A stretch of DNA of 64,000 bases from contig JAUWLF010000009.1 of NCBI GenBank assembly GCA_030613785.1, positions 5,624 to 69,623 on the forward strand. Reading direction: 5' to 3'. Positions 4,942 through 21,501 of this stretch are shown here, piece by piece (positions within the stretch are counted from its first letter, which is position 1; each line of letters begins with the position of its first letter). The notes beneath the pieces are model-generated. The model saw only the letters and a program-made list of their open reading frames with translations. It ran no database searches and was not told the origin of the DNA. A program made the translations under genes and the position numbers. The stretch comes from Chloroflexota bacterium. Lineage in GTDB: Bacteria > Chloroflexota > Anaerolineae > UBA7937 > B3-Chlor.

Positions 4942-5943
4942 TCAGTCCTCGGCAAACCCTTCGAGTTTGGGCACGTCCTCGGCCTCGCCAACACCGCCTG
5001 GTTCAGGCAACTCACCCGCGCTTGGCCTGGACGCACTGATCTGAAGACTCGTCAACCCACTGCTCACCTTGCTCAGCAGGACACTCAGCTCGTTGCGGGA
5101 ATTGGTCAGCATCGTGATCGCCCTGGAGAACCTGCCTTCGAGTTCTTCTTGCGCCGCCTGGATGCTCTCTTCCGCGCTGCGCAGGTACGCGTCCAATCTC
5201 TGCACGTCAAAGCTCTGCGAGGTCTCGAGTACTGTTTGAAACACGAGCAACAGATAGGGGACAAACATTCTGTAGCTGACGAGTGCCACGTTCAACCGAA
5301 ACACGTCTACGTAGATGCCAGCGCTAAGATCGTACACCCCGTCGGGGACCACCGCGACGCCGAAGTTCACCGTGACGTTGGGATCGATGTACTTCCTCAC
5401 CTCTTTGGCCTTGTCGAGCACAGCCTTCTCGATCTGAGCCTTGATCCTTTGTTGGTCCTGAGGGTCGTCGGCGGCGGCGAACTGCTCCAAGAGATGCGTC
5501 GCCGGCCACTTGGAGTCGATGGGCAGCACCAGGTTGTTGGGCAGGCGCAGGCCGAACTCCACGGCCTTGTCCCCTACCCTGAAGTTGCGCACCTGCCACT
5601 CGATGGGCAATTGGGCAAACACCGCCTCGAGGATATTCTCCCCCGCCGCGCCTTTGGTCTGCGTCCCGGCAATGACCATCTCCAGCCGCCGTATGGACTC
5701 GGCCGTCTGGCGCTCCAGGTCCTGGCGCGCTCTCGTGTACGCCTGCAACTGGGTCAAGTCCCGCTGGATGTTGGTCACCGCCTGGCTGACCGGCTCCAGT
5801 TGCGACAGCTTCTCTGAGATGACTGCGGTCTCCACGTCTCGTCGAGAGCTGCGGAGTTGCAGGAATTGCAGGGCCAGCAGCATTAGCACTGCCAGCAGAA
5901 GCACGACCACCAGAACGACCAACACCAGCAACAAAGGATCCAT
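4942..5943 (-). CDS. rmuC: RmuC-family protein (N-terminal TM helix, coiled coil, PD-(D/E)xK-like nuclease core)
   Basis: The hydrophobic N-terminus LLLVLVVLVVVLLLAVLMLLAL is followed by GAAGENILEAVFAQLP and EFGLRLPNNLVLPIDSKWP, which match RmuC core motifs. AGGAGG lies 6 nt before the ATG at 5943. Confidence 0.75.
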   Translation of the reverse strand: MDPLLLVLVVLVVVLLLAVLMLLALQFLQLRSSRRDVETAVISEKLSQLEPVSQAVTNIQRDLTQLQAYTRARQDLERQTAESIRRLEMVIAGTQTKGAAGENILEAVFAQLPIEWQVRNFRVGDKAVEFGLRLPNNLVLPIDSKWPATHLLEQFAAADDPQDQQRIKAQIEKAVLDKAKEVRKYIDPNVTVNFGVAVVPDGVYDLSAGIYVDVFRLNVALVSYRMFVPYLLLVFQTVLETSQSFDVQRLDAYLRSAEESIQAAQEELEGRFSRAITMLTNSRNELSVLLSKVSSGLTSLQISASRPSAGELPEPGGVGEAEDVPKLEGFAED

Positions 5944-5987
5944 CACATGCCTCCTGTTATGCGCCCAACTCCGTCTGCATGTCTACC

Positions 5988-8920: not shown

Positions 8921-9640
8921 TCATTTCCCAGGCCAGCGCCAGTAGGCCGGTTCCTCCCCTGGGGGGTAGACATCCACAATCTGCCAGTGGCGCACAGGAT
9001 ATCCTTGCATCTCTCCCCAGTAGCAGCCGCCAGCCACCAGAAGGTCGAATACGTATTGGCCCGGTTCATCACCTCCGGAGACTTCTACCCAGAGCCGGGC
9101 AAAACCGGCGTCTCGGCTATCGGTGATGACGCGAGGCTCGCAGCACGTGCCCCACCACTCGATTCTTAGCACCCGACGGGTCAGCTCCGCCCGCAGCTCC
9201 TCCAGTTCTGTGGTTACAGACTGGCGGCGCACTTCATACTCCGGCCCGAGGCGCTCGTTCGCGGGCCACAGTGTCAGGGCTTCCTCGCGAGCCCCTGACG
9301 AGACGAACTCTAGATACGACGATACTTTCGCTTGGGGTGCTTCCCCGATGAGCCTCTCGACCAGACGGTTGGCGGGTCCCAGCATGGCAGCACTGCTAGT
9401 CACGGGAAGGAACCCGAACGCTACAAGTACTATGCCGACGAGCCCGACGTGGACCACTAAGCATAGGACGATGCCCCTCCCACTTCCCAGCCATCTGGAC
9501 AGCAACAACAAGGACAATGCTCCAATGGGCAAGGCATAAGCAGGCGAGAGGCCAGTGGGCAACATCGGCGAAAGCAGTACAGCCACTAGCAGCGAAGCTA
9601 GCAGAAAGGCAAGATACACCAGTAGAATTCGAATCCTCAT
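8921..9640 (-). CDS. Hypothetical protein, 3 N-terminal TM helices plus a soluble C-terminal domain
   Basis: 239 aa. SD GAGGTGAGGG. No family recognised. Confidence 0.5.
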   Translation of the reverse strand: MRIRILLVYLAFLLASLLVAVLLSPMLPTGLSPAYALPIGALSLLLLSRWLGSGRGIVLCLVVHVGLVGIVLVAFGFLPVTSSAAMLGPANRLVERLIGEAPQAKVSSYLEFVSSGAREEALTLWPANERLGPEYEVRRQSVTTELEELRAELTRRVLRIEWWGTCCEPRVITDSRDAGFARLWVEVSGGDEPGQYVFDLLVAGGCYWGEMQGYPVRHWQIVDVYPPGEEPAYWRWPGK

Positions 9641-9795
9641 CCCTCACCTCGCCACCGCTTTCACGCAGTCGCCGACGCAGAGATGGCACTCTGGAGCTTT
9701 CAGCACAAGCGAAGCGGCCTGCAGCGTACCGAGGGCCATGCCCCGAAGTGGCGCCTGCACCGCGCTATGTGCGGTTGCCATCGTCGGTCTCTCCC

Positions 9796-11130: not shown

Positions 11131-12072
11131 CTAGAACGCGGGTGGCTCCTGAAACAGCAGCCGGACGTCCAGCGGGAGGCCCTTCCTCTCGTCGCGCACC
11201 AGCGACAGCGCCTCATCTGGGCACTGCTGCACACATACCCCGCAACCCATACACGTCTCCCAGTGCACGACGGCCGTCTCGTCTACCTCGATGGCTCCGA
11301 AGGGACAGGCATCCTCACAGGTCCCACAGGCTACGCAAAGTGTCTCGTCCACCTCCGCGACGTAACCGGAGGACGCGATGCCAGGAACGCCATACTTGAC
11401 CATGCCTTCAATGCCCGCACAGCAGCAGCCACAGCAGTTGCAGATTGCGTAGAAGCGGTCGATGCAGGCATCCTTGAAATAGGCAGCATGCACGTGCCCG
11501 CGCTCATGCTCTGCCCGAAGGAGTTCGAGGGCCTCCGCTTGGGTGAGTCGGCGACTGGTCTGGGGATGGTGCTCCAAAATGAAATCCGTGAAAGGTTGGC
11601 CGATGGCCATGCATACCTGGCTGGGCTGGCAGACACTATCCCGCAAGTCCCGGCAAGCACACTCGAATGCCACCACATCCGGCGGGCTATTGAGCACCAA
11701 TTCGCGAGCCATGGCATAAGGGATGATCTGCTCCAGGTCTCTCAAGGGGATTTCTTGCTGAATGGTGATGATGGCCTCCGCTTGATCCTGCGTCAACACC
11801 TTGCTGTGGTGGTGGTCGGCCAACCACTGCTTTCCCCGGGGACCCAGGCGGGGGATGATGTGATTGATGAATAGATCAACATATTCCTTGGTCCAGCGCC
11901 CATAGATGTAGCCATGCACACCGCTCAGATTGAGGAATCGCCGCAAGCCGGCCTCTCTCATCATCCTCCACGTCGAGGGGCGCAAGGGCCTCCACCGCTC
12001 ACCATAAAGCCACACAATCACTACCGTTGCCACCAGCGCGGCCGCCGTGATGAGTATGATGCTGCCTAGCAT
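11131..12072 (-). CDS. Membrane-anchored Fe-S protein (CNCCGCCC cysteine cluster plus a 2x[4Fe-4S] ferredoxin domain)
   Basis: The start was moved to the ATG at 12072 (MLGSIILITAAALVATVV, SD GAAGGAGGG), because the ORF-track start lies inside leader hairpin D. Motifs are CVACGTCEDACP and CMGCGVCVQQCP. It is a paralog of 56139..57224. Confidence 0.7.
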   Translation of the reverse strand: MLGSIILITAAALVATVVIVWLYGERWRPLRPSTWRMMREAGLRRFLNLSGVHGYIYGRWTKEYVDLFINHIIPRLGPRGKQWLADHHHSKVLTQDQAEAIITIQQEIPLRDLEQIIPYAMARELVLNSPPDVVAFECACRDLRDSVCQPSQVCMAIGQPFTDFILEHHPQTSRRLTQAEALELLRAEHERGHVHAAYFKDACIDRFYAICNCCGCCCAGIEGMVKYGVPGIASSGYVAEVDETLCVACGTCEDACPFGAIEVDETAVVHWETCMGCGVCVQQCPDEALSLVRDERKGLPLDVRLLFQEPPAF

Positions 12073-12126
12073 GCTGTCTGCCCTCCTTCTTTCAGCTCCG
12101 TACAGTGCTCCGAACTGCCAAGCAAG

Positions 12127-12157
12127 AAGCCTCGACCTGCCATGCAAGGCGAGGCTT
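12127..12157 (-). promoter_or_regulatory. Leader hairpin, copy D (compensated stem AAGCCUCG / CGAGGCUU)
   Basis: The stem position that is G-C in copies A, B and G is C-G here, changed on both arms. The loop contains UUGCA. Confidence 0.6.
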
Positions 12158-12210
12158 GTCGACCAAGAAGAGACGAAGCAGCGGCTGCTCCCTCTCCGCC
12201 CTCCCTGCTC

Positions 12211-12239
12211 ACTATGGCATAAGTCAGGTGGATTATCAA
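12211..12239 (-). promoter_or_regulatory. sigma70-type promoter TTGATA-17-CATAGT
   Basis: Minus strand reads TTGATAATCCACCTGACTTATGCCATAGT. The spacer is nearly identical to that of promoter B. Confidence 0.6.
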
Positions 12240-12359
12240 CGCCAAGTCAGGGAGTCTGAGAGCTTGGCCATCGGCTTTGCCAGCGGTCGCGGCCTCCTGA
12301 CACCAGAAGATTCACCACTGTGGTTCTTCTGGCCGTTTGTCCACCGTCGTCAACGCCGA

Positions 12360-13340
12360 CTAGAGTCTACCGTGGTCCCTGAACCACTGAATCGCATCTC
12401 GAACAGATTCTCTTGGTGGACGAGGGGAGTAGCCCAGTTCGCGGCGAGCCTTCTTGCAAGTGGTCAGGCAATCGCTGGTAAGGACGTGAATCGAGTACGC
12501 TGTGAACAAAGGTTTGGTTCCTCTCACCCGATAGTACAGAGGGGTAAACCTGGCGATTGTCCTGGCGAGCGCGGGAGGTACTTTCAACGAGGGTGCTCTG
12601 GCCCCAGTCACCTCTTCTAGCATGGACAACAGATCGTGCACGGTGATTCGTTCACCCGACAAGATGTAGCTCTCTCCCCTGCGTCCCTTTTCAGCGGCGA
12701 GAACGAGGCCCCTAGCCACATCACGCACATCGACGAAATCGTAGGCTCCCTCGATGTAGGCTTTGAGCTTCCGCGTAGCCACGTTGATCATCAATTGACC
12801 CATCTCAGATGGCGCGTAGTCATAAGGGCCTATCACACCTGTGGGGCATGCCACCACAGCATTGAGGCCCCTCTCCACCCCTTCAAGCACTTCCAGAGTG
12901 GCCAGGGCTTTGGATCTGGCATAGTCACCTATCGCGCTATCAGGGTCAAAGGGAAGCGTTTCGTCGATGACAGTGCCAGGGGGCGGCTCTATTATGGCAT
13001 GAATAGAGCTCGTATACACCAGCCGTGGCACACCAACTTCCAGGCATGCTCGTATCACATTCCGTGTGCCTTCCACGTTCACTTCGCGCAGCAGATCAGC
13101 CTTGCCTGGCGAGATGGACACAATCCCCGCCAGGTGGTATACCACATCGCTCCCCCTGAAGGCCTGCATGAGAGAATTGACGTCGCGCACGTCGCCTTCG
13201 ACTCTCTCTAGCCTCAACCCATCGATGGGTGTCGTATCCTCGAAGGGGGGCACCAATGCACGCACCTTTTCGCCACTTGACAGCAAATCGCGAACGAGGA
13301 CGTTGCCGATGTGTCCCGTTCCACCTGTGACCACAATCAT
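12360..13340 (-). CDS. NAD-dependent epimerase/dehydratase (extended SDR, dihydroflavonol-reductase-like)
   Basis: 326 aa with MIVVTGGTGHIGNVLV (Rossmann fold) and YARSK (YxxxK). Confidence 0.75.
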   Translation of the reverse strand: MIVVTGGTGHIGNVLVRDLLSSGEKVRALVPPFEDTTPIDGLRLERVEGDVRDVNSLMQAFRGSDVVYHLAGIVSISPGKADLLREVNVEGTRNVIRACLEVGVPRLVYTSSIHAIIEPPPGTVIDETLPFDPDSAIGDYARSKALATLEVLEGVERGLNAVVACPTGVIGPYDYAPSEMGQLMINVATRKLKAYIEGAYDFVDVRDVARGLVLAAEKGRRGESYILSGERITVHDLLSMLEEVTGARAPSLKVPPALARTIARFTPLYYRVRGTKPLFTAYSIHVLTSDCLTTCKKARRELGYSPRPPRESVRDAIQWFRDHGRL

Positions 13341-13646: not shown

Positions 13647-14417
13647 TCACATCAATTCAGCCAGGGTCTTGCCGCCAAGATAGTCAGGGAAACTGTAAAC
13701 GCCACCGACTTGGATATAGCATCGATCTGGGTGCTTCTCCCAACCTCTGGCCAAGCCGATGCGCAGGTAGACGTCGCGCTCTCCCAGAAAGCCCGTCAGC
13801 CACTCACTGACCTTCGCGACAGTCCACTCCTTGCGAGTCTTCAAGTAGTCACAGGCGGTCCTGAAGGTGAGGTCGGTGATCGCCAGTCGGTACTCTTGGT
13901 CGGCTTGATCGGTGAACCATATCCGATAGTCCCACCTCTCACCTTCACTCCTGTACGAGTACAGCACCCGAGAGATCTGCTTCGGGAGTACGGTCCCCAG
14001 AGATCTGCCACCTTCCCCCCTCTTGATGTATTTGTCGTACTGTACCGGTGCTCCAAAGATGTCTGCCACCGAGCCATCGAGATGATCGTCCAAGAACTGC
14101 CGTCTCTCGTGAGTGGGCAGAACCCTGACCAACTCAGGCCGGGATGGAAGATCGATCTCCCAATCCTCCGTATGGGGCGGGTCAGACACACGACGAAGGA
14201 ACTCCAATCGCACCTCGGCAAACGGCATGACGACCAGCCGGTCGTCTTTCCAGAGGAATCCCTCAGTGACCCTCTCGCGGCTGCGATAAGGCATGACTGG
14301 CCTGACCGCTGCTCCATCGTCCGCGAAGAACCCAGCCACACATACTCCGGGGGCTCCCATTCTAGTGACATCGGTAACGATCATGCTCCTCTTCATCGCC
14401 TTCACCTCCTTGATCAC
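13647..14417 (-). CDS. Uncharacterised protein, possibly a dual OB-fold type, third gene of the DUF488 operon
   Basis: 256 aa. MIVTDVTRMGAPGVCVAGFFADDGAAVRPV and a later RSLGTV...YRLAITDL...LRIGLARGW...CYIQVGGVYSFP pattern. The family assignment is from memory only. Confidence 0.45.
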   Translation of the reverse strand: MIKEVKAMKRSMIVTDVTRMGAPGVCVAGFFADDGAAVRPVMPYRSRERVTEGFLWKDDRLVVMPFAEVRLEFLRRVSDPPHTEDWEIDLPSRPELVRVLPTHERRQFLDDHLDGSVADIFGAPVQYDKYIKRGEGGRSLGTVLPKQISRVLYSYRSEGERWDYRIWFTDQADQEYRLAITDLTFRTACDYLKTRKEWTVAKVSEWLTGFLGERDVYLRIGLARGWEKHPDRCYIQVGGVYSFPDYLGGKTLAELM

Positions 14418-14474
14418 TCAACACGTCTTCATGTCTCAACCGTAGGATCACCCTAGCCCCGGACGCCTAGCCTC

Positions 14475-14921
14475 TCACAGATGCACTACCTCAACATCCG
14501 GCCATGATTTCTGCAAGTACTCAGCCACAAGCCTCCGGTGGCAGTGGTCGGGAGTAGGCTCGCTGCACAGCAGGCAACAACTCTTCTCCGCAAAGAAATC
14601 CCTGTGGAGCGTCTCCAGAACCTTCCGCTCCTCCAGCAAGTCGTGGAACTCCTTCACGTACAGCTCCCAGTCCATCTCTGATTCCTGATATGCCTTCCTG
14701 ATCTCGGGGGTTGGAGCCAGGGACTCGAAATGGTAGTATTCGATGCGCAGCAGGCGGCGGAGGAAGTACTCCAGATCCTGCTTCTTGCTGAACCCAGCAA
14801 GCTGTGAAGTGTTGCGCAAACGCACATCCAGTACGCGCTCAATGCCGTGACTCTCGAGCAAGTCGAAGAACTCCTCAGCGGACTTCTTGGTGTAGCCTAT
14901 CGTGTAGATCTTCATGGCCAT
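14475..14921 (-). CDS. DUF488-family protein (copy 2)
   Basis: MKIYTIGYT, VLDVR and CSEPTPDHCHRRLVAEYL are DUF488 hallmarks. An alternative ATG at 14915 overlaps the upstream stop as ATGA. Confidence 0.8.
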   Translation of the reverse strand: MAMKIYTIGYTKKSAEEFFDLLESHGIERVLDVRLRNTSQLAGFSKKQDLEYFLRRLLRIEYYHFESLAPTPEIRKAYQESEMDWELYVKEFHDLLEERKVLETLHRDFFAEKSCCLLCSEPTPDHCHRRLVAEYLQKSWPDVEVVHL

Positions 14922-15433
14922 TCATCCCCAAAACCCAACTGCTGGGCGTCCCAGGCCAGGCTTCTTTGTGCCGGCTCTGTCCACGTCTCGCCGGCCTTAT
15001 GTCGGATGTGCACCACTTCCACGTCTCTGTCCAGCAGGGTCTGAGAGATGAGCAAGTGACGATGGCATTGGCTGGGGTCCTCCTCGGCACACATGATCGC
15101 TGTCCACTTCTCGGTCGCAAGTTGGATAAGCCCGTCGATGCCTTTCTTGTACCAGTCCCTTTTCTCCACCTCCTCATAGAGCACTCTGTCTTCATCTTGC
15201 TCATCGTAACAGCTTGGGTCCTTCGGCCTCCCCCCCAGATGATGCCCCCCGTAGATGTACTGGATTCCGGCCTGCTCGAGTTGCTCGGCAAGTGTCTCCC
15301 TATTGAACTGGGGTGCATGCCGGCTATAGGGGGAGCTGCGCACATCCAGCACCGCGTCGATGCCATGAGATTGCAACAACTCGATCACTCGCTCCACTTC
15401 AACGTTACTGTGCCCAATGGTGTAGATAGTCAT
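14912..15433 (-). CDS. DUF488-family protein (copy 1)
   Basis: MTIYTIGHSN, VLDVRSSP and CAEEDPSQCHRHLLISQTL. Confidence 0.8.
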   Translation of the reverse strand: MTIYTIGHSNVEVERVIELLQSHGIDAVLDVRSSPYSRHAPQFNRETLAEQLEQAGIQYIYGGHHLGGRPKDPSCYDEQDEDRVLYEEVEKRDWYKKGIDGLIQLATEKWTAIMCAEEDPSQCHRHLLISQTLLDRDVEVVHIRHKAGETWTEPAQRSLAWDAQQLGFGDEWP

Positions 15434-15558: not shown

Positions 15559-15681
15559 TCAAAGCCGTCTGTCGGCCGCCGAGAACTCCTCCAGTCTGAT
15601 CCCTGAGGTGAATCGCTCAATCTTCTCGAGTGCGTCGAGGATATTTTGAAGGTAGTCTCTGAAGTCTCGGTCTTGCGTCAT
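15559..15681 (-). pseudogene. hepT: Truncated HepT (DUF86) toxin remnant, 40 codons
   Basis: Hand translation gives MTQDRDFRDYLQNILDALEKIERFTSGIRLEEFSAADRRL*. This is a typical DUF86 N-terminus, but the R(x)4HxY region is absent. Its ATG overlaps the mntA stop as ATGA. Confidence 0.6.
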
Positions 15682-15980
15682 ACCGGCACGAGTTCCTCAA
15701 GGATGTGAGTGCCGATGCGCGGCTTCAGTGTGCTCCTCATTACCAGGTCTATCTGGACACCGAGGAGTTCGCTGAGGTACTCCTCAAGCCGGATGAACTC
15801 GAAGAGGCTAGGTGGTTCGTGGAACTCCACAAGTACGTCTAAATCGCCACCTTCCCCTTGCTCGCCACGCACATAGGAACCGAATACACCCAAGGACTTG
15901 ACTCCGTTGCGTGTTTGCAGCTCAGGCAAGTACCTGCGAAGAGATCCTACGAACTGTGCCAGCTCCTCGTTCGTCGCCAT
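15678..15980 (-). CDS. mntA: MntA-type nucleotidyltransferase (type VII antitoxin family)
   Basis: MATNEELAQFV...LGVFGSYVRGEQGEGGDLDVLVEF, with the GSxxRG...DxD motif. The start at 15980 has SD GAGGA; an alternative ATG lies at 16034. The ORF-track start at 16145 is inside the promoter. Confidence 0.75.
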   Translation of the reverse strand: MATNEELAQFVGSLRRYLPELQTRNGVKSLGVFGSYVRGEQGEGGDLDVLVEFHEPPSLFEFIRLEEYLSELLGVQIDLVMRSTLKPRIGTHILEELVPV

Positions 15981-16116: not shown

Positions 16117-16145
16117 AGTATAGCAGGAACGAAGTGTGGTGTCAA
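16117..16145 (-). promoter_or_regulatory. sigma70-type promoter TTGACA-17-TATACT
   Basis: Minus strand reads TTGACACCACACTTCGTTCCTGCTATACT. Confidence 0.75.
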
Positions 16146-16425: not shown

Positions 16426-17901
16426 CTACCGCGCAGTCAACTCCGGGAGCTGGTCCAGCCCTGCGGCCTTGGCATGCCGGGTAGCGATGGCCTCCAGCTC
16501 CCGCACCACATCGTTGGCCAGCGGCAACGCCTCGTAAGCCTCGATCAGTTCCTCGACCCGGTGATGCGCGCGGGCGTTGACGTCCAGCGCCCCCTTGCCG
16601 AGCCAGGTCTGGCGATAGTCCCGGTCGATCACCTCCGAGGGCATGTAGTCTTCAGTGCGGAAGTGACGGACGGTGTGCTTGGTGCCCAGGAAGCTGCCCT
16701 TGTGTCCCACCTCGCGCATCACATCCAGCGCCAGTGGCTCGTCCGAGTCATCCACGCCGCGCACCAGCCGCTTGGCCATGCCCACGATTTCGGCGTCGAT
16801 CACCAGCTTCTCGAGGCTGAAACAGCTCTCAAAGTTCATCATGCCTGGCCCCGACATCATGTTGATCCCTGCTAGCGCACCGAGGATGGCCCCGGACGCC
16901 GACTCCAGGCCCGCCTGGGCGTCCACAATCTTGGTGTCGCTCATACAGAGGTATGCATGGGTGGGCAGGCCGCCCGGCTTGATCATCTTGCCGATCTGAG
17001 AGTAGGTGCAGTCGAGCATCATCGTCCCCATGGCGCCCATGGGCGGTGCACCCGTGCGCATGTCGAAGGCGGACGGAGAGCCGCCCCAGACGATGGGGCT
17101 CCCTGGATGGGCCAGTTGGTGGATGGTGAGGCCACTCAGGCACTCGGCGGCGTGCTGCACGGCCGCGCCGATGATTGTGGCGGGACCGGTTGCACCCATC
17201 AGGGGCATGGAGACCAACTGAGCGGGCACCTGGGCGCGGGCGGCGTCCATCAGATTAGCGCACGTGATGTCGCTCCACATCAGGGGTGGTGATGGACAGA
17301 CGTCGAAGATGGCGCGGGGTCTCTCCGCCAGGGCTTCCGCGCTCCCCGCCACGGCCACCAAAAGTTCGTGCATAATGGCGAAGCTCTCGATGGCAAAGGT
17401 GCCGGTGACGATGGGTTTCCGGGCGTAGAGCAGCACCAGATATAGGCGGTACCAGTCGCCCATGCTCTTGGGCACGTCGCCGCAGACGATGGATGTGGCC
17501 ACGGCGTCGATCTGGGGCAGCATCTCCGCCAGCCGGACGAAGTTCTCGCCATCGGCGGTGACCGGCACACGCGCCTCGTTAGCCCCATAGTCGGCGATTT
17601 CGATGGCCGCCGAACCGGGATCGAAATGCACGTCATCGCCGCCATAGTGGACGACTGGCTCTCCATCAAGGTTGTAGAGATAGAACGAGTTGGGCGCGCT
17701 CTCCACCGCGCTTTCGGCCAAAGGCCGGGGGATCTTGGCGACGCGCGATTCCATATCCACGGTGGCACCGGCGTCGGCCAACAGCTCCAACGCCTCATCG
17801 TAGTGGATGCGCACCCCGGGGTCGACCAATAGATCGTAGGCCTCGTCGAGCGCCCGATCGACTGTCTCGCGCGATAGGAACTCCAGCTTGGGTCGTATCA
17901 T
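16426..17901 (-). CDS. MttB-superfamily methyltransferase (trimethylamine/glycine-betaine type, no in-frame UAG)
   Basis: The start was moved to MIRPKLEFLSRETVDRALDEAYDLL (SD GAAGGAGGAG) because promoter 17924..17952 lies inside the longer ORF. It gives 491 aa, a typical MttB length, and the frame is uninterrupted. Confidence 0.75.
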   Translation of the reverse strand: MIRPKLEFLSRETVDRALDEAYDLLVDPGVRIHYDEALELLADAGATVDMESRVAKIPRPLAESAVESAPNSFYLYNLDGEPVVHYGGDDVHFDPGSAAIEIADYGANEARVPVTADGENFVRLAEMLPQIDAVATSIVCGDVPKSMGDWYRLYLVLLYARKPIVTGTFAIESFAIMHELLVAVAGSAEALAERPRAIFDVCPSPPLMWSDITCANLMDAARAQVPAQLVSMPLMGATGPATIIGAAVQHAAECLSGLTIHQLAHPGSPIVWGGSPSAFDMRTGAPPMGAMGTMMLDCTYSQIGKMIKPGGLPTHAYLCMSDTKIVDAQAGLESASGAILGALAGINMMSGPGMMNFESCFSLEKLVIDAEIVGMAKRLVRGVDDSDEPLALDVMREVGHKGSFLGTKHTVRHFRTEDYMPSEVIDRDYRQTWLGKGALDVNARAHHRVEELIEAYEALPLANDVVRELEAIATRHAKAAGLDQLPELTAR

Positions 17902-17923
17902 GTCTCCTCCTTCAACGAGTCCT

Positions 17924-17952
17924 ACGATAGCACGACGCGCCTGATTTGTCAA
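17924..17952 (-). promoter_or_regulatory. sigma70-type promoter TTGACA-17-TATCGT
   Basis: Minus strand reads TTGACAAATCAGGCGCGTCGTGCTATCGT, with a very short leader of about 15-20 nt. Confidence 0.7.
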
Positions 17953-18350
17953 CGAAGCGCCCAAGAGCACCTTCAACCGGTCCACGGAATGTCGCTCTGC
18001 CCAACCGACCACAAGCGCTGCCGGAGATGCTCCGCTGTACTTCCTCGGGCGTAGACCCATTCCGCCTCAGATGACTGCGGCCGCTGGCACTTGCACCTGC
18101 AAGGCCGCAGTCAGGGAAGAGATAGGGTCGACAGGACCGAGAACTGAGCTGCCTACCTAACCGCTTGTGTTGCGTGAGACCCAATCCTATGGCTTCGTGC
18201 TTCTTGGCCGCACCGAAAACTCCAGACCCGCCATCCTGAGTAATCGCGGAACGTAGTGGAGCAGCGTATCGAAGGATGTTCCCTTCGACACAGTGTCCGA
18301 CCAGGCAGGCATCCCCTTGAGGCAACCCTGCGCACAGCCTCGAGTCAACC

Positions 18351-19634
18351 TCACCCCTCGTCCCTCTGCACCTCAAAGGCGCCGATGTCGCACGGAGTGC
18401 CGTCGGAAGTCAACTCAATTGGCCGGGCGTTCCCCCGCTGGTCGGTGGTGACGGTGCAACTGATCACGGAGACGGCGTCAATCGCCGGGCTGCCCGGGAG
18501 CAGGGTATGGGTCAGGGTATCGCCGCCGTTGTCGGCCAGGGGAGCCAATCGCGCATCGCCCGAGAGGGCAGGGCTGCAACTCCCGTCCTCGACCAGGTTG
18601 TTGGCGTTTGTCCCGAGGGTGCTGTCGTCGGCCAGCATGCAGTCATCACAGCAGTACTCCCGGCCATCGGTGTTGTCGGCGATGATGGTGTTGGTGAGGT
18701 CCAGCCACCCGCGGATGAGACCCCTCTCACCGCTGCCTTCGACGTAGACACCACCCCCGGTGCCGGCAGCATGGTTGCCGGCGACAGTGCTGTTGATCAA
18801 CTGCGCCGCCCCCTTGACGTACATTCCGCCACCGTTACCTCCTGTGGCGCTATTGCCGCTGACGGTGCTGTTGATGAGCTCCAACGTGCTCTTGCAGGCC
18901 ACAAAGATGCCGCCCCCTCTATCTCCGCAGGCGTTCCCGGTCACGGTGCTGTTGATCAGTGTTAGCCTCCCTGTGAGACTCTTGATACCCCCACCAGTAT
19001 TGCATTCCCTGAAAGCGCTGTCGGCGGTACCGGCGGCGTTGTCGCTCACCGTGCTGTTGATGAGCGTCAGTGTGCCATCACTGTGAATCCCACCGCCGGC
19101 AGTGGAGTCGTTGTCGCTGACAGTACACTGTTCTAGCGTCAGCGTACCCTCGTTCAGGATCCCGCCACCGGTTCTGGGACTTTCCGTGGGATTGCCGTAC
19201 CGAATCGTCAGACCGCCCATGGTTACTGTGGCCTCACTGGTGATGAAGAACACCCGGTCGCTCGCGCTGCCGGCCTCTGCGTGAGCCTGCACAATAGTGC
19301 CCCCGGGCGCCTGGCCCAGGATGGTGACGCTCTTCTCCACAGTGATGCCCTGCTCGGTGTGCACAGCGTCCATGACAGCGATGATCTCACCATCCGTGGT
19401 GCCGGCGTCGTCTATCGCCGCTTGAATGGTGGTGAAGTCGCAGCCGCTGGCGCACACGCTGAGGGCGGGTACCAGAGTAGGCGTAGGTTCGGCCGTGGGG
19501 CTGGGTTCAGGAGTGGCCGTGGGCGAGGCTATCGCCGTCGGCGCTGGCTGCGGCGTTGCGCACCCCGCAATCACCAATACCACTCCCAGGATGACCAAGA
19601 CGTTTCTCAACACTCTCCCCAAGGAGCCAAACAT
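18351..19634 (-). CDS. Secreted lipoprotein with parallel beta-helix repeats and a choice-of-anchor-Q-like C-terminus
   Basis: Lipobox VLVIAGC. A Pro/Thr linker is followed by repeated [11 protein letters not shown] units. The C-terminus reads [22 protein letters not shown]...DQRGNARP...CDIGAFE. Confidence 0.7.
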
Positions 19635-19679: not shown

Positions 19680-21218
19680 CTATCTCTCGTAGACCCACTC
19701 CTCGAATAGTGGGGTCAGGTCGCACTGGCAGTGACGCTCCGCAAGCTCCTTGAACGCCTCTCCCGTGCCGATGCCCCACTGGTAGGTCTGGTAGTAGTCC
19801 CGCAGGAATTCGTCGAATGTGGCCTGACCCATTTCCTCGGCCAGAGTCTCTACGAAGAGGGGCCCACGGCCGTAGACAATCGCACCGTACTGCCCGTCCT
19901 CGTACGCTCCCACGGGCAGACCGATGGGGGTCTCGGCCATGTCAACACGGTCCCAGCGACCGACCCACGAGTCACGGTATCCCTGCGCAGCACCCGCTCC
20001 GTCGGTATCCAGATAGTACAGCTTCACCACGTACTGCACCACGGCCTCATCCAGCCAGGGCTCGTCCACCTGATCGTTCCCCACGACGTTGTAGAACCAC
20101 TGATGGGCAACCTCGTGGGCTACAGCCGACTCGAGGATGATCGGCGATGGCAGCCCCAGGATCTCCGCGTTCGGGTCGAACAGATCCAGGGATATACCCG
20201 TCAGGCCCGGATACTCGATGCCCAGCGCCCGCATCGGCGTGCTCACTACGTCGAATTCGGTGTACGGGTACACGCCAAACCGGTCGTTGTAGCTCTCCAG
20301 AGCGTCCACCGCAAACTGCAAAGCCAGCTCGGCTCCGTCTCTCCGCTCGGCAAAGGTGTGGCTGTTGACCGTCGTCTCCCCCACCGTTTCGCTGACCGTC
20401 ACGTATTGGTCACTGGCAGCGAGATAGAAATCGCGCGCGGGGCCAGCGGCGAAGGTCAGCGTCTGCTTCCCGTTCTCTAGTTCGCGCCCGACCTCAACCC
20501 CCGAGGCGACTACAGTGAGCTCGGCAGGCGCAGTCACGCGCAACAGATAGAAGCTGGCGTCGAAGTGAGTCACATCTCCGGTGGGAGGCGGAACCTCCAC
20601 GTTCCATCCCTCTTCGTCGTAGACCGGGATCACCGGATAGAACTCGTCCAGCACTAACACTTCATCGAAGTAACCAAACAATCCGTAGTTCCCGCCCATC
20701 TCCGTGGGCACTTCCACGGTGAAGTTCATCTGGATGGTGATCTGCTCGCCAGGATCCAATGGATCCGGCAAGGGAACCCGCACAGCACTGTTCTCCAGTT
20801 CATAGACCGGCTCCACATCCTCCCCATCCACCTTCACCCCAGACACCGAGGCCGCTCCTCCGGCCAGGTTCGGAAACAAGCGGAAGTAGACTTCGTCAAG
20901 AGCTGCATCCTCTTGATTGGTGTAGCGGGCCTCTTCCCGACCTGACAGGGTGAGGAAATCGTCGGCGATCTCAAGGTCGATGTGGTAGACGGTCGCCCCC
21001 GGCAAGTCATCTAGTACCGCTTGCTCCCCCTGGATCAGTCCTTGACGGAACACAGCGCGGTTTTCCCAGTCTATGTCAGACCCAGTAGATGCGCTGCGCG
21101 TGGGGAGTGGGGTCCAGGATGAAGAAGGAGTGGTCTCCTCTGGCGCTATTGGCGTTGACGCGCTGCACGCCGCCAACGCCAGTGTGGCCAAGACTAGAAC
21201 AGCTGACAACCTCTTCAT
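19680..21218 (-). CDS. M1-family zinc metallopeptidase lipoprotein
   Basis: HEVAHQWFYNVVGND...WLDEA (HExxH-18-E). Signal plus lipobox LALAAC. The ATG at 21218 is preferred for its SD spacing. Confidence 0.75.
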   Translation of the reverse strand: MKRLSAVLVLATLALAACSASTPIAPEETTPSSSWTPLPTRSASTGSDIDWENRAVFRQGLIQGEQAVLDDLPGATVYHIDLEIADDFLTLSGREEARYTNQEDAALDEVYFRLFPNLAGGAASVSGVKVDGEDVEPVYELENSAVRVPLPDPLDPGEQITIQMNFTVEVPTEMGGNYGLFGYFDEVLVLDEFYPVIPVYDEEGWNVEVPPPTGDVTHFDASFYLLRVTAPAELTVVASGVEVGRELENGKQTLTFAAGPARDFYLAASDQYVTVSETVGETTVNSHTFAERRDGAELALQFAVDALESYNDRFGVYPYTEFDVVSTPMRALGIEYPGLTGISLDLFDPNAEILGLPSPIILESAVAHEVAHQWFYNVVGNDQVDEPWLDEAVVQYVVKLYYLDTDGAGAAQGYRDSWVGRWDRVDMAETPIGLPVGAYEDGQYGAIVYGRGPLFVETLAEEMGQATFDEFLRDYYQTYQWGIGTGEAFKELAERHCQCDLTPLFEEWVYER

Positions 21219-21501
21219 GATCATCTCCTGGTATTGCCTGGTGATGCAAGGGAGCCTGTCTCATTGGGAACGGCGCCCTTTTCCTGCTTGAGAAGCCTTG
21301 TCTGCCCGCGTCGGAAGTGGAGCAGTGATGCCGCGCCCCATTCCGTACACCAGCGACGGCCGCATGAGGTTCACGCATCCAGGACGCTCGGCGACCGCCC
21401 GCGGTCAGACCCCACTTTCCATTAGTCTGACAGCCCGGATACGTCAGCGAGCCTGCGCTCAAGGGCTCGACTCCCTCCTCGTGGCTACCCGTAGAAACAC
21501 G

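Follow-up and report, generated by a model that had tools for sequence, protein, structure and literature searches.

The locus considered here lies in a 64,000-nucleotide stretch of DNA (hereafter the window) from a Chloroflexota bacterium (assembly GCA_030613785.1, contig JAUWLF010000009.1, positions 5,624 to 69,623), in which three head-to-tail open reading frames (ORFs) on the minus strand, verified by ORF calling and translation, encode two DUF488 paralogues, DUF488-A and DUF488-B, and DuOB, a protein of two tandem oligonucleotide/oligosaccharide-binding (OB) folds. These three genes constitute a conserved, tightly linked operon, found across many bacteria and also in some archaea and phages, and, judged by sequence, the trio in the window is a diverged, order-rotated Chloroflexota branch of the module that PADLOC catalogues as phage-defence candidate PDC-M45.

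DUF488-A (14912-15433, minus strand, 173 aa) belongs to the general DUF488 clade, equivalent to PDC-M45B. Its TGA stop codon (14914-14912) falls within the start region of DUF488-B (14475-14921, minus strand), a member of the DUF488-N3a clade, equivalent to PDC-M45C. An earlier note on this DNA, made from the sequence alone and without database searches, had the two genes overlapping either by ATGA or by 10 nt, and both are indeed possible: an ATG at 14921 gives a 148-aa protein and the 10-nt overlap, and an ATG at 14915 a 146-aa protein and the ATGA overlap. The latter is favoured because homologues are mostly 144-146 aa long and begin with MKIYTIG. The same note placed a 256-aa protein 57 nt further on; such a frame does exist from a GTG at 14417 (13647-14417, minus strand), but a start at the ATG at 14396 is more likely. 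A GGAGG core lies 8 nt 5' of that ATG, and the closest DuOB relatives have 249-254 aa and the N-terminus MKRSMIVTD; we therefore take 13647-14396 (minus strand, 249 aa, Pfam PF22557) as the DuOB gene, which most likely leaves 78 nt between DUF488-B and DuOB.

The two DUF488 paralogues

Both proteins match the Pfam family DUF488 (PF04343) well above its cut-off of 22.2 bits (DUF488-A, 2.8e-26 and 93 bits; DUF488-B, 1.7e-25 and 90.4 bits), which bears out the diverged DUF488 pair recognised in the earlier note, and they are homologous to each other (hhalign E 3.8e-17). DUF488-B also exceeds the cut-off of 27 bits for DUF488-N3a (PF22751, 48.9 bits), whereas DUF488-A, with 18.8 bits, lies outside that clade. 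To the 'inactive' N3i clade (PF22752, cut-off 27) DUF488-A had no match, and DUF488-B scored 23.6 bits. B-type relatives number at least 7995, and PF22751 was present on 120 of the 120 matches listed.

Alignments showed the loop C-x-E-x-x-P-x-x-C-H-R to be kept in both proteins, as C-A-E-EDPSQ-CHR in A and C-S-E-PTPDH-CHR in B. Conserved residues are G7-H8-S9, D30-V31-R32-S33, C115, E117, P120 and C123-H124-R125 in DUF488-A, and T7-G9, D32/R34, Q40-L41-G43-F44, C116, C119-S120-E121 and C127-H128-R129 in DUF488-B. On these residues both copies look catalytically competent, and neither resembles the N3i clade. The two types are otherwise told apart by their loops: GHSN, DVRSxPxS and LGGRPxDPxCY in A-type proteins; G(F/Y)TKKSA, QLAGFxKxxDLxYFL and LAP in B-type proteins. 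The motifs quoted in the earlier note (IYTIG, VLDVR, RSLG, YRLAITDL, LRIGLARGW and CYIQVGG) are all present in the translations of the trio; its motif C.E....CHR is present as well, except that the spacer from E to CHR is five residues long and not four.

A search that started from a fused Thermomicrobiales protein brought up dozens of 90%-identity clusters of single-chain A-B fusions, which are 34-92% identical to that protein. Because A and B are so often fused in nature, they would be expected to form a heterodimer, and they probably work as one enzyme. In the AlphaFold2 (AF2) model of an A-B fusion the domains are confidently folded, with a predicted local distance difference test score (pLDDT) of 84.6; C130 and C305 each end a strand, and the CHR motif begins the helix that follows. 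Sequence searches of the PDB with A, B and DuOB, both as single sequences and as profiles, returned no relative of solved structure, and a literature search found no experimental biochemistry for DUF488, in agreement with the earlier note's remark that the family has no established biochemical role.

The DuOB protein

The earlier note likened the third protein to a dual OB-fold family that accompanies DUF488, and this was correct: the protein scores 40.6 bits (cut-off 27) with the Pfam 'Dual OB-containing domain' (PF22557), the match spanning residues 23-240 of the protein and positions 13-210 of the 210 in the profile. A precomputed PF22557 hit is carried by all but one of 120 DuOB homologues listed. 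The AF2 model of DuOB (pLDDT 90.1, predicted template modelling score (pTM) 0.89) contains two strand sets of beta-barrel type, and its top Foldseek matches in the PDB are POT1, RPA70, the HIN domains of p204, p202, AIM2 and IFI16, LEF-3, Teb1, TEBP-alpha and CST (E 2e-4 to 1e-2, probability up to 0.99, over approximately 250-300 columns). POT1, RPA70, HIN domains, LEF-3, Teb1 and TEBP-alpha bind single-stranded DNA (ssDNA), DNA ends or double-stranded DNA. The model makes DuOB a probable subunit for DNA binding or targeting.

With a profile we searched 1.84 billion representative proteins and obtained 1305 DuOB relatives at E <=1e-3, some of which are fused to other domains. A DuOB of the window's own subfamily is joined to a complete RecQ helicase (P0389); a second RecQ fusion (P0370) shows only the two helicase-core domains. 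Others of this subfamily are fused to HRDC (P0428, P0403 and P0391, the first of which also has RQC), to HEAT repeats (P0369 and P0433) and, in one cluster (P0365), to a glyoxalase/bleomycin-resistance domain. The P0389 locus, on a metagenome contig (L152:4037-7703), encodes DUF488-A, DUF488-N3a and a 900-aa DuOB-RecQ protein (DEAD, Helicase_C, RecQ_Zn_bind, RQC and HRDC domains) with 4-nt overlaps; it is preceded by genes for a HerA-like ATPase, an unannotated 535-aa protein and a Dam-like methyltransferase, and an XPG/FEN1-like gene lies about 1.2 kb downstream. This locus is the strongest evidence for reading the substrate as DNA, and together the tandem-OB fold model and the fusions to RecQ, RQC and HRDC make the nucleic-acid role suggested in the earlier note plausible.

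Eight polar or cysteine residues are invariant in DuOB (C19, R32, H75, E77, D78, S132, D175 and C226), and C19, R32, E77, S132 and D175, probably also C226, are conserved in both DuOB subfamilies, that of the window and the distant PDC-M45A type. This pattern gives a hint that DuOB has a specific site, for a ligand, a metal or catalysis, and does not simply bind ssDNA in a generic way.

Conservation of the trio

Using an alignment of DuOB relatives, we retrieved 80 loci from species-representative genomes and scored their ORFs with the three proteins of the window. Most of these loci are from Chloroflexota (Anaerolineae, Chloroflexia, Thermomicrobiales, Ktedonobacteria and Dehalococcoidia); the others are from Bacillota, Armatimonadota, Poribacteria and two archaea. 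Both DUF488 types stand beside DuOB in 69 of the 80. The order found in the window (A-B-C, where C is DuOB) occurs in 52/80 loci, and in two more with a split C; A and B are fused and followed by C in 5/80, the order is C-A-B in 3/80, B and A are divergent from C in 6/80, and one locus of the 80 is mixed. Six of the remaining 11 loci end at a contig edge beside the DuOB gene. DuOB lacks a DUF488 neighbour at L033 and L065, and at L010 its one DUF488 neighbour is of the A type; the surrounding genes there are housekeeping genes and uninformative.

An arrangement repeated in 69 of 80 independent loci goes far beyond what chance would produce. Spacing is tight: across 50 A-B-C loci the median gap is 8.5 nt between A and B (14 overlaps) and 17 nt between B and C (11 overlaps). 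The co-conservation of a DUF488 pair with this partner, which the earlier note named as a check on its proposal, is therefore well supported. No flanking family is seen more than three times, and so the module consists of exactly three genes, with no fourth conserved.

PDC-M45, defence loci and phage contigs

The earlier note regarded the trio as a candidate for an undescribed module. It is not undescribed: the families have Pfam models (DuOB, DUF488-N3a), their superfamily is the subject of a computational paper of 2023 (Burroughs & Aravind, NAR Genom Bioinform lqad029), and in Acidobacteria and Smithella the module corresponds to PDC-M45A/B/C. The PDC set comprises 145 candidates drawn from genes embedded in bacteriophage exclusion (BREX), defence island system associated with restriction-modification (DISARM) and type I restriction-modification loci (Payne et al. 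2024, bioRxiv 10.1101/2024.01.29.577857). In PADLOC-DB v2, PDC-M45A is the Pfam DuOB protein, PDC-M45B is DUF488 and PDC-M45C is DUF488-N3a. The neighbourhoods of Koribacter versatilis Ellin345 and Smithella have the order DuOB-DUF488-DUF488N3a, and their trios match PDC-M45A, B and C at 1e-83, 7e-84 and 5e-69, respectively.

In the window, DUF488-A matches PDC-M45B at 1.3e-50 and DUF488-B matches PDC-M45C at 5.9e-60. The window DuOB, by contrast, has no PADLOC match at E <=10 from either start codon, all four PDC-M45A models included, and six other Chloroflexota-type DuOB proteins have no PDC-M45A match at E <=1, whereas bona fide PDC-M45A members score 1e-83 to 1e-89. Against the Koribacter DuOB, BLASTP aligned only a 45-residue patch, and hhalign gave E 1.3e-4 over 193 columns. 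It is because A and B match PDC-M45B and PDC-M45C strongly, and DuOB is related at profile level only, that we place the window trio on a diverged and rotated branch. Surveys based on the four PDC-M45A models may undercount the system, since they do not recognise the Chloroflexota-type DuOB. The names 'DuOB' and 'PDC-M45' were not found in our literature search.

The sister form stands in defence contexts. The Smithella copy adjoins BrxL and a cyclic oligonucleotide-based antiphage signalling system (CBASS) pair, and on an IMG/VR contig the trio is directly upstream of PglZ and BrxL. A phage variant consists of DuOB and DUF488-N3a followed by a fusion, about 200 aa long, of a minimal SLOG domain and DUF4326 (mSLOG-DUF4326), which replaces the A-type DUF488; this cassette makes up 13 of the 24 module-carrying IMG/VR loci. 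It was noted on contigs L095, L098-L105 and L108-L110, for example at L101:5324-7031, where a large terminase gene lies 0.6 kb upstream. A preprint describes homologues of a LOG-like anti-Avs protein that carry DUF4326 at the C-terminus, so the phage cassette may serve counter-defence. Since phage contigs as well as BREX loci carry the module, both sides in the conflict of phage and host may make use of it.

Surroundings in the window

Directly upstream of the trio, and outside the module, lie an MntA-like nucleotidyltransferase gene (15678-15980, minus strand, approximately 100 aa from the ATG at 15980; the mechanical ORF extends to 16145) and an N-terminal remnant of HepT (DUF86; 15559-15681, minus strand). 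The MntA-like protein matches Pfam NTP_transf_2 (8.7e-16) and the PADLOC single-gene candidate PDC-S09 (4.5e-24), and reaches 38.7 bits against NCBIfam MntA, below the equivalog cut-off of 60. The HepT remnant, identified by translation and tblastn, has an ATG that overlaps the MntA stop codon as ATGA and ends after 40 codons; its best tblastn matches on plasmids are genes annotated as HepT-like or DUF86 (E 0.03 and 0.4), and the peptide, too short for one, has no Pfam match. No HepT-like reading frame is present in the 125 nt between the remnant and DUF488-A. With HepT cut to 40 codons and no frame downstream, the toxin half of this type VII toxin-antitoxin pair is lost.

A promoter-like site (TTGACA-17-TATACT with a TG extension; 16117-16145, minus strand), recognised by consensus match alone (11/12 positions), lies about 130 nt upstream of mntA, and no terminator-like site was seen on the minus strand between it and the trio. 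It may thus drive mntA, the HepT remnant and the trio as one transcript.

In two related Anaerolineae (L003 and L007) the trio follows MttB by approximately 280-400 nt, with no MntA/HepT between, and these genomes have the upstream genes for MttB, a beta-helix protein, an M1 peptidase and a HAD hydrolase in common with the window. In the window the MttB-family methyltransferase is at 16426-18060, the right-handed beta-helix protein at 18351-19634 and the M1 peptidase at 19683-21260, all on the minus strand and syntenic with the related Anaerolineae. Because MntA/HepT is absent from these syntenic relatives, it is a lineage-specific insert and uninformative on the trio. A functional link between the trio and MntA/HepT was considered and rejected, on that absence and on the truncation of HepT. 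The earlier note was right that an MntA/HepT-remnant locus adjoins the trio, but its step from there to a conflict-system neighbourhood is weak, given L003 and L007.

Further downstream, a 240-aa protein with no Pfam match (8924-9643, minus strand) has copies directly downstream of DuOB in the two closest loci (L001:5322-6077, 65% identical to the window protein, and L002:4702-5415); in the window it is about 4 kb further from DuOB. On this difference in distance, the window genes for an Fe-S protein and an epimerase (11131-13340) look inserted relative to those two loci. An RmuC-family protein is encoded at 5002-5982 (minus strand). A check for mobile-element signatures around the trio found no flanking repeats of note, and no tRNA gene anywhere in the window.

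Proposed function and alternatives

A cysteine at a strand end, a loop and then Cys-His-Arg form the geometry usual in phosphatases and transferases of the rhodanese-phosphatase (R-P) type, which depend on a cysteine. The 2023 paper by Burroughs and Aravind reportedly names a RapZ-C/DUF488/DUF4326 clade of R-P enzymes and predicts novel DNA-end processing for it in virus-host conflict systems; we treat this as a lead, not a test. DUF4326, the sister family, is a clade of the R-P superfamily proposed to process ribose-linked terminal phosphates, and enzymes of that superfamily remove terminal phosphates by means of an active-site cysteine (PMC9503650). Our own comparisons are no more than suggestive of the same placement for DUF488. 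The Foldseek list for the A-B fusion model includes RapZ (rank 6, E 4e-3, probability 0.54), tetrapyrrole-type methylases (SonM-type, probability 0.93), T4 PNK and a viral protein tyrosine phosphatase (0.54). Short of significance, hhalign aligned DVRSxPxS of DUF488 with DVRFLPNP of RapZ, twice, and CSExxPxxCHR with CHCKPxxCHGD of DUF4326.

We give about an even chance to the reading that the three-gene operon, as the Chloroflexota branch of the PDC-M45 module, encodes a DNA-directed complex. In such a complex the putative A/B heterodimer would supply two active sites, each with a strand-end cysteine and, beyond a short loop, the Cys-His-Arg from which a helix sets out, an arrangement that suggests cysteine-dependent catalysis. 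DuOB, with its modelled fold, would bind ssDNA, junctions of single- and double-stranded DNA or DNA ends and bring the enzymes there, and the complex might, more speculatively, remove, transfer or add a phosphate or sugar-phosphate at a DNA terminus or lesion. Its biological role could then be either restriction of invading DNA or end-cleaning repair. Across the whole family we slightly favour a conflict role, a preference that we do not extend to the chromosomally syntenic Anaerolineales copy in the window.

Several observations count against this reading. The trio is vertically inherited and syntenic beside MttB in the lineage of the window, and no Pfam or PADLOC family occurs more than three times among the 150 nearest flanking ORFs of the retrieved loci, the neighbours being mostly housekeeping genes such as those for GatB, RuvB and amidohydrolases. 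OB folds also bind RNA, and DuOB may be more than a passive binder because it has unusually many invariant polar residues. The pTM of the A-B fusion model is 0.54, so that its inter-domain packing is unusable and the heterodimer interface is not established by the model. The best PDB E-values for the DUF488 model are weak (2e-3 to 1e-1, none below 1e-3), and hhalign comparisons of the DUF488 profiles with E. coli RapZ and with a DUF4326 alignment were not significant. The authors of the PDC catalogue, moreover, describe all 145 systems, PDC-M45 included, as untested (Payne et al. 2024, bioRxiv 10.1101/2024.01.29.577857).

A more specific form of the DNA-directed reading is a new type of DNA-end-modifying machine, in which a tandem-OB subunit resembling telomere proteins captures ssDNA ends or junctions, in some cases laid open by a fused RecQ, and a heterodimeric cysteine enzyme covalently processes the terminal phosphate or sugar-phosphate, the whole being used by hosts in BREX and by phages as the mSLOG-DUF4326 form. 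In this detail we consider the proposal unlikely. If true, it would give DUF488, a domain widespread in prokaryotes and present in some viruses, its first biochemical function.

The module might instead belong to housekeeping DNA repair, with DuOB recognising damaged or blocked ssDNA ends and the DUF488 pair cleaning them, for example of a 3'-phosphate or a comparable blocking group, to let repair go on. The synteny beside MttB in related Anaerolineae, the largely housekeeping neighbours and the scarcity of defence genes next to Chloroflexota-type trios all fit this explanation, as do the fusions of DuOB to RecQ, RQC and HRDC, all classical modules of repair and recombination, its one fusion to a glyoxalase/bleomycin-resistance domain and the XPG/FEN1-like gene near the DuOB-RecQ locus. 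Yet the sister form lies within BREX or beside CBASS, and Payne et al. selected it for its embedding in defence systems; the module also occurs on phage contigs, and its patchy spread over phyla and archaea points to horizontal transfer rather than core repair. On balance we think housekeeping repair rather unlikely.

An RNA-directed system, drawn by analogy with RapZ, would have DuOB bind single-stranded RNA and the DUF488 pair process RNA termini (2',3'-cyclic, 2'- or 5'-phosphate). The C-terminal domain of RapZ binds a small RNA, RapZ is among the Foldseek matches, hhalign twice picked out its DVRFLPNP motif, and OB folds commonly bind RNA. The similarity to RapZ is, however, not statistically significant, the fusion partners of DuOB are DNA helicase and DNA-binding modules, its top structural matches are DNA binders and DNA methyltransferases are found among the neighbours, so that an RNA substrate seems improbable. 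A toxin-antitoxin or abortive-infection-like pair, in which one DUF488 neutralises the other, perhaps in connection with MntA/HepT, would suit two translationally coupled paralogues with an mntA gene and a HepT remnant directly upstream, but is very improbable when frequent A-B fusion argues for cooperation rather than antagonism, catalytic-looking residues are kept in both proteins, MntA/HepT is missing from syntenic relatives and HepT has only 40 codons here, and a DuOB partner, needless for a simple pair, is always present.

For the window itself, the result is mostly a correct annotation: the trio is a diverged example of an already catalogued module, not a new kind of system. DUF488 is nonetheless very widespread, E. 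coli YeaO included, and the module offers handles on its function: A and B are likely to form an obligate heterodimer, a tandem-OB protein is dedicated to them as partner, and the natural fusions of DuOB to RecQ, RQC and HRDC point to DNA as substrate. For experiments that aim to give DUF488 a function, the module is well suited.

Comparison with known systems

YeaO of E. coli K-12 (L156:8910-9257, 115 aa), the usual point of reference for DUF488, is a DUF488 family member like the two window proteins and aligns with the B-type profile over its C-terminal half (hhalign E 1.5e-4), but it stands alone, with no DuOB partner nearby, and has YSAKNTTQNHA where the window proteins have CSE..P..CHR. 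Conclusions drawn from YeaO may not transfer to the trio, since it lacks both cysteines and the arginine as well as the partner. In one screen, deletion of yeaO altered where CRISPR spacers came from (bioRxiv 10.1101/2024.05.24.595836), and our literature search found no YeaO phenotype beyond that screen. At the level of Pfam families, all three window proteins pass the gathering thresholds of DuOB, DUF488 and DUF488-N3a. N3i is described as an 'inactive' partner clade; DUF488-A of the window instead keeps the Cys/His/Arg loop.

The tandem-OB DNA binders (POT1, RPA70 DBD-A/B, HIN, LEF-3, Teb1 and TEBP-alpha) have two consecutive OB folds, as does DuOB, but share no sequence similarity with it, and the relative orientation of the two folds differs, as judged from TM-scores of only 0.23-0.36 (identity 6-11%). 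On the predicted structure, the likeness is one of fold and no evidence of shared family membership. Passive single-stranded DNA-binding proteins also lack the many invariant polar and cysteine residues of DuOB.

The phage cassette has the same tightly linked core of DuOB and DUF488-N3a as the window and differs in lacking an A-type DUF488. PDC-M45 contains the same three families as the window, likewise in co-directional and nearly contiguous genes. One difference lies in gene order, which is DuOB-DUF488-DUF488N3a in PDC-M45 (seen in L081, L084 and L088, and in only 3/80 loci of the window type) and is rotated in the window to DUF488-DUF488N3a-DuOB.

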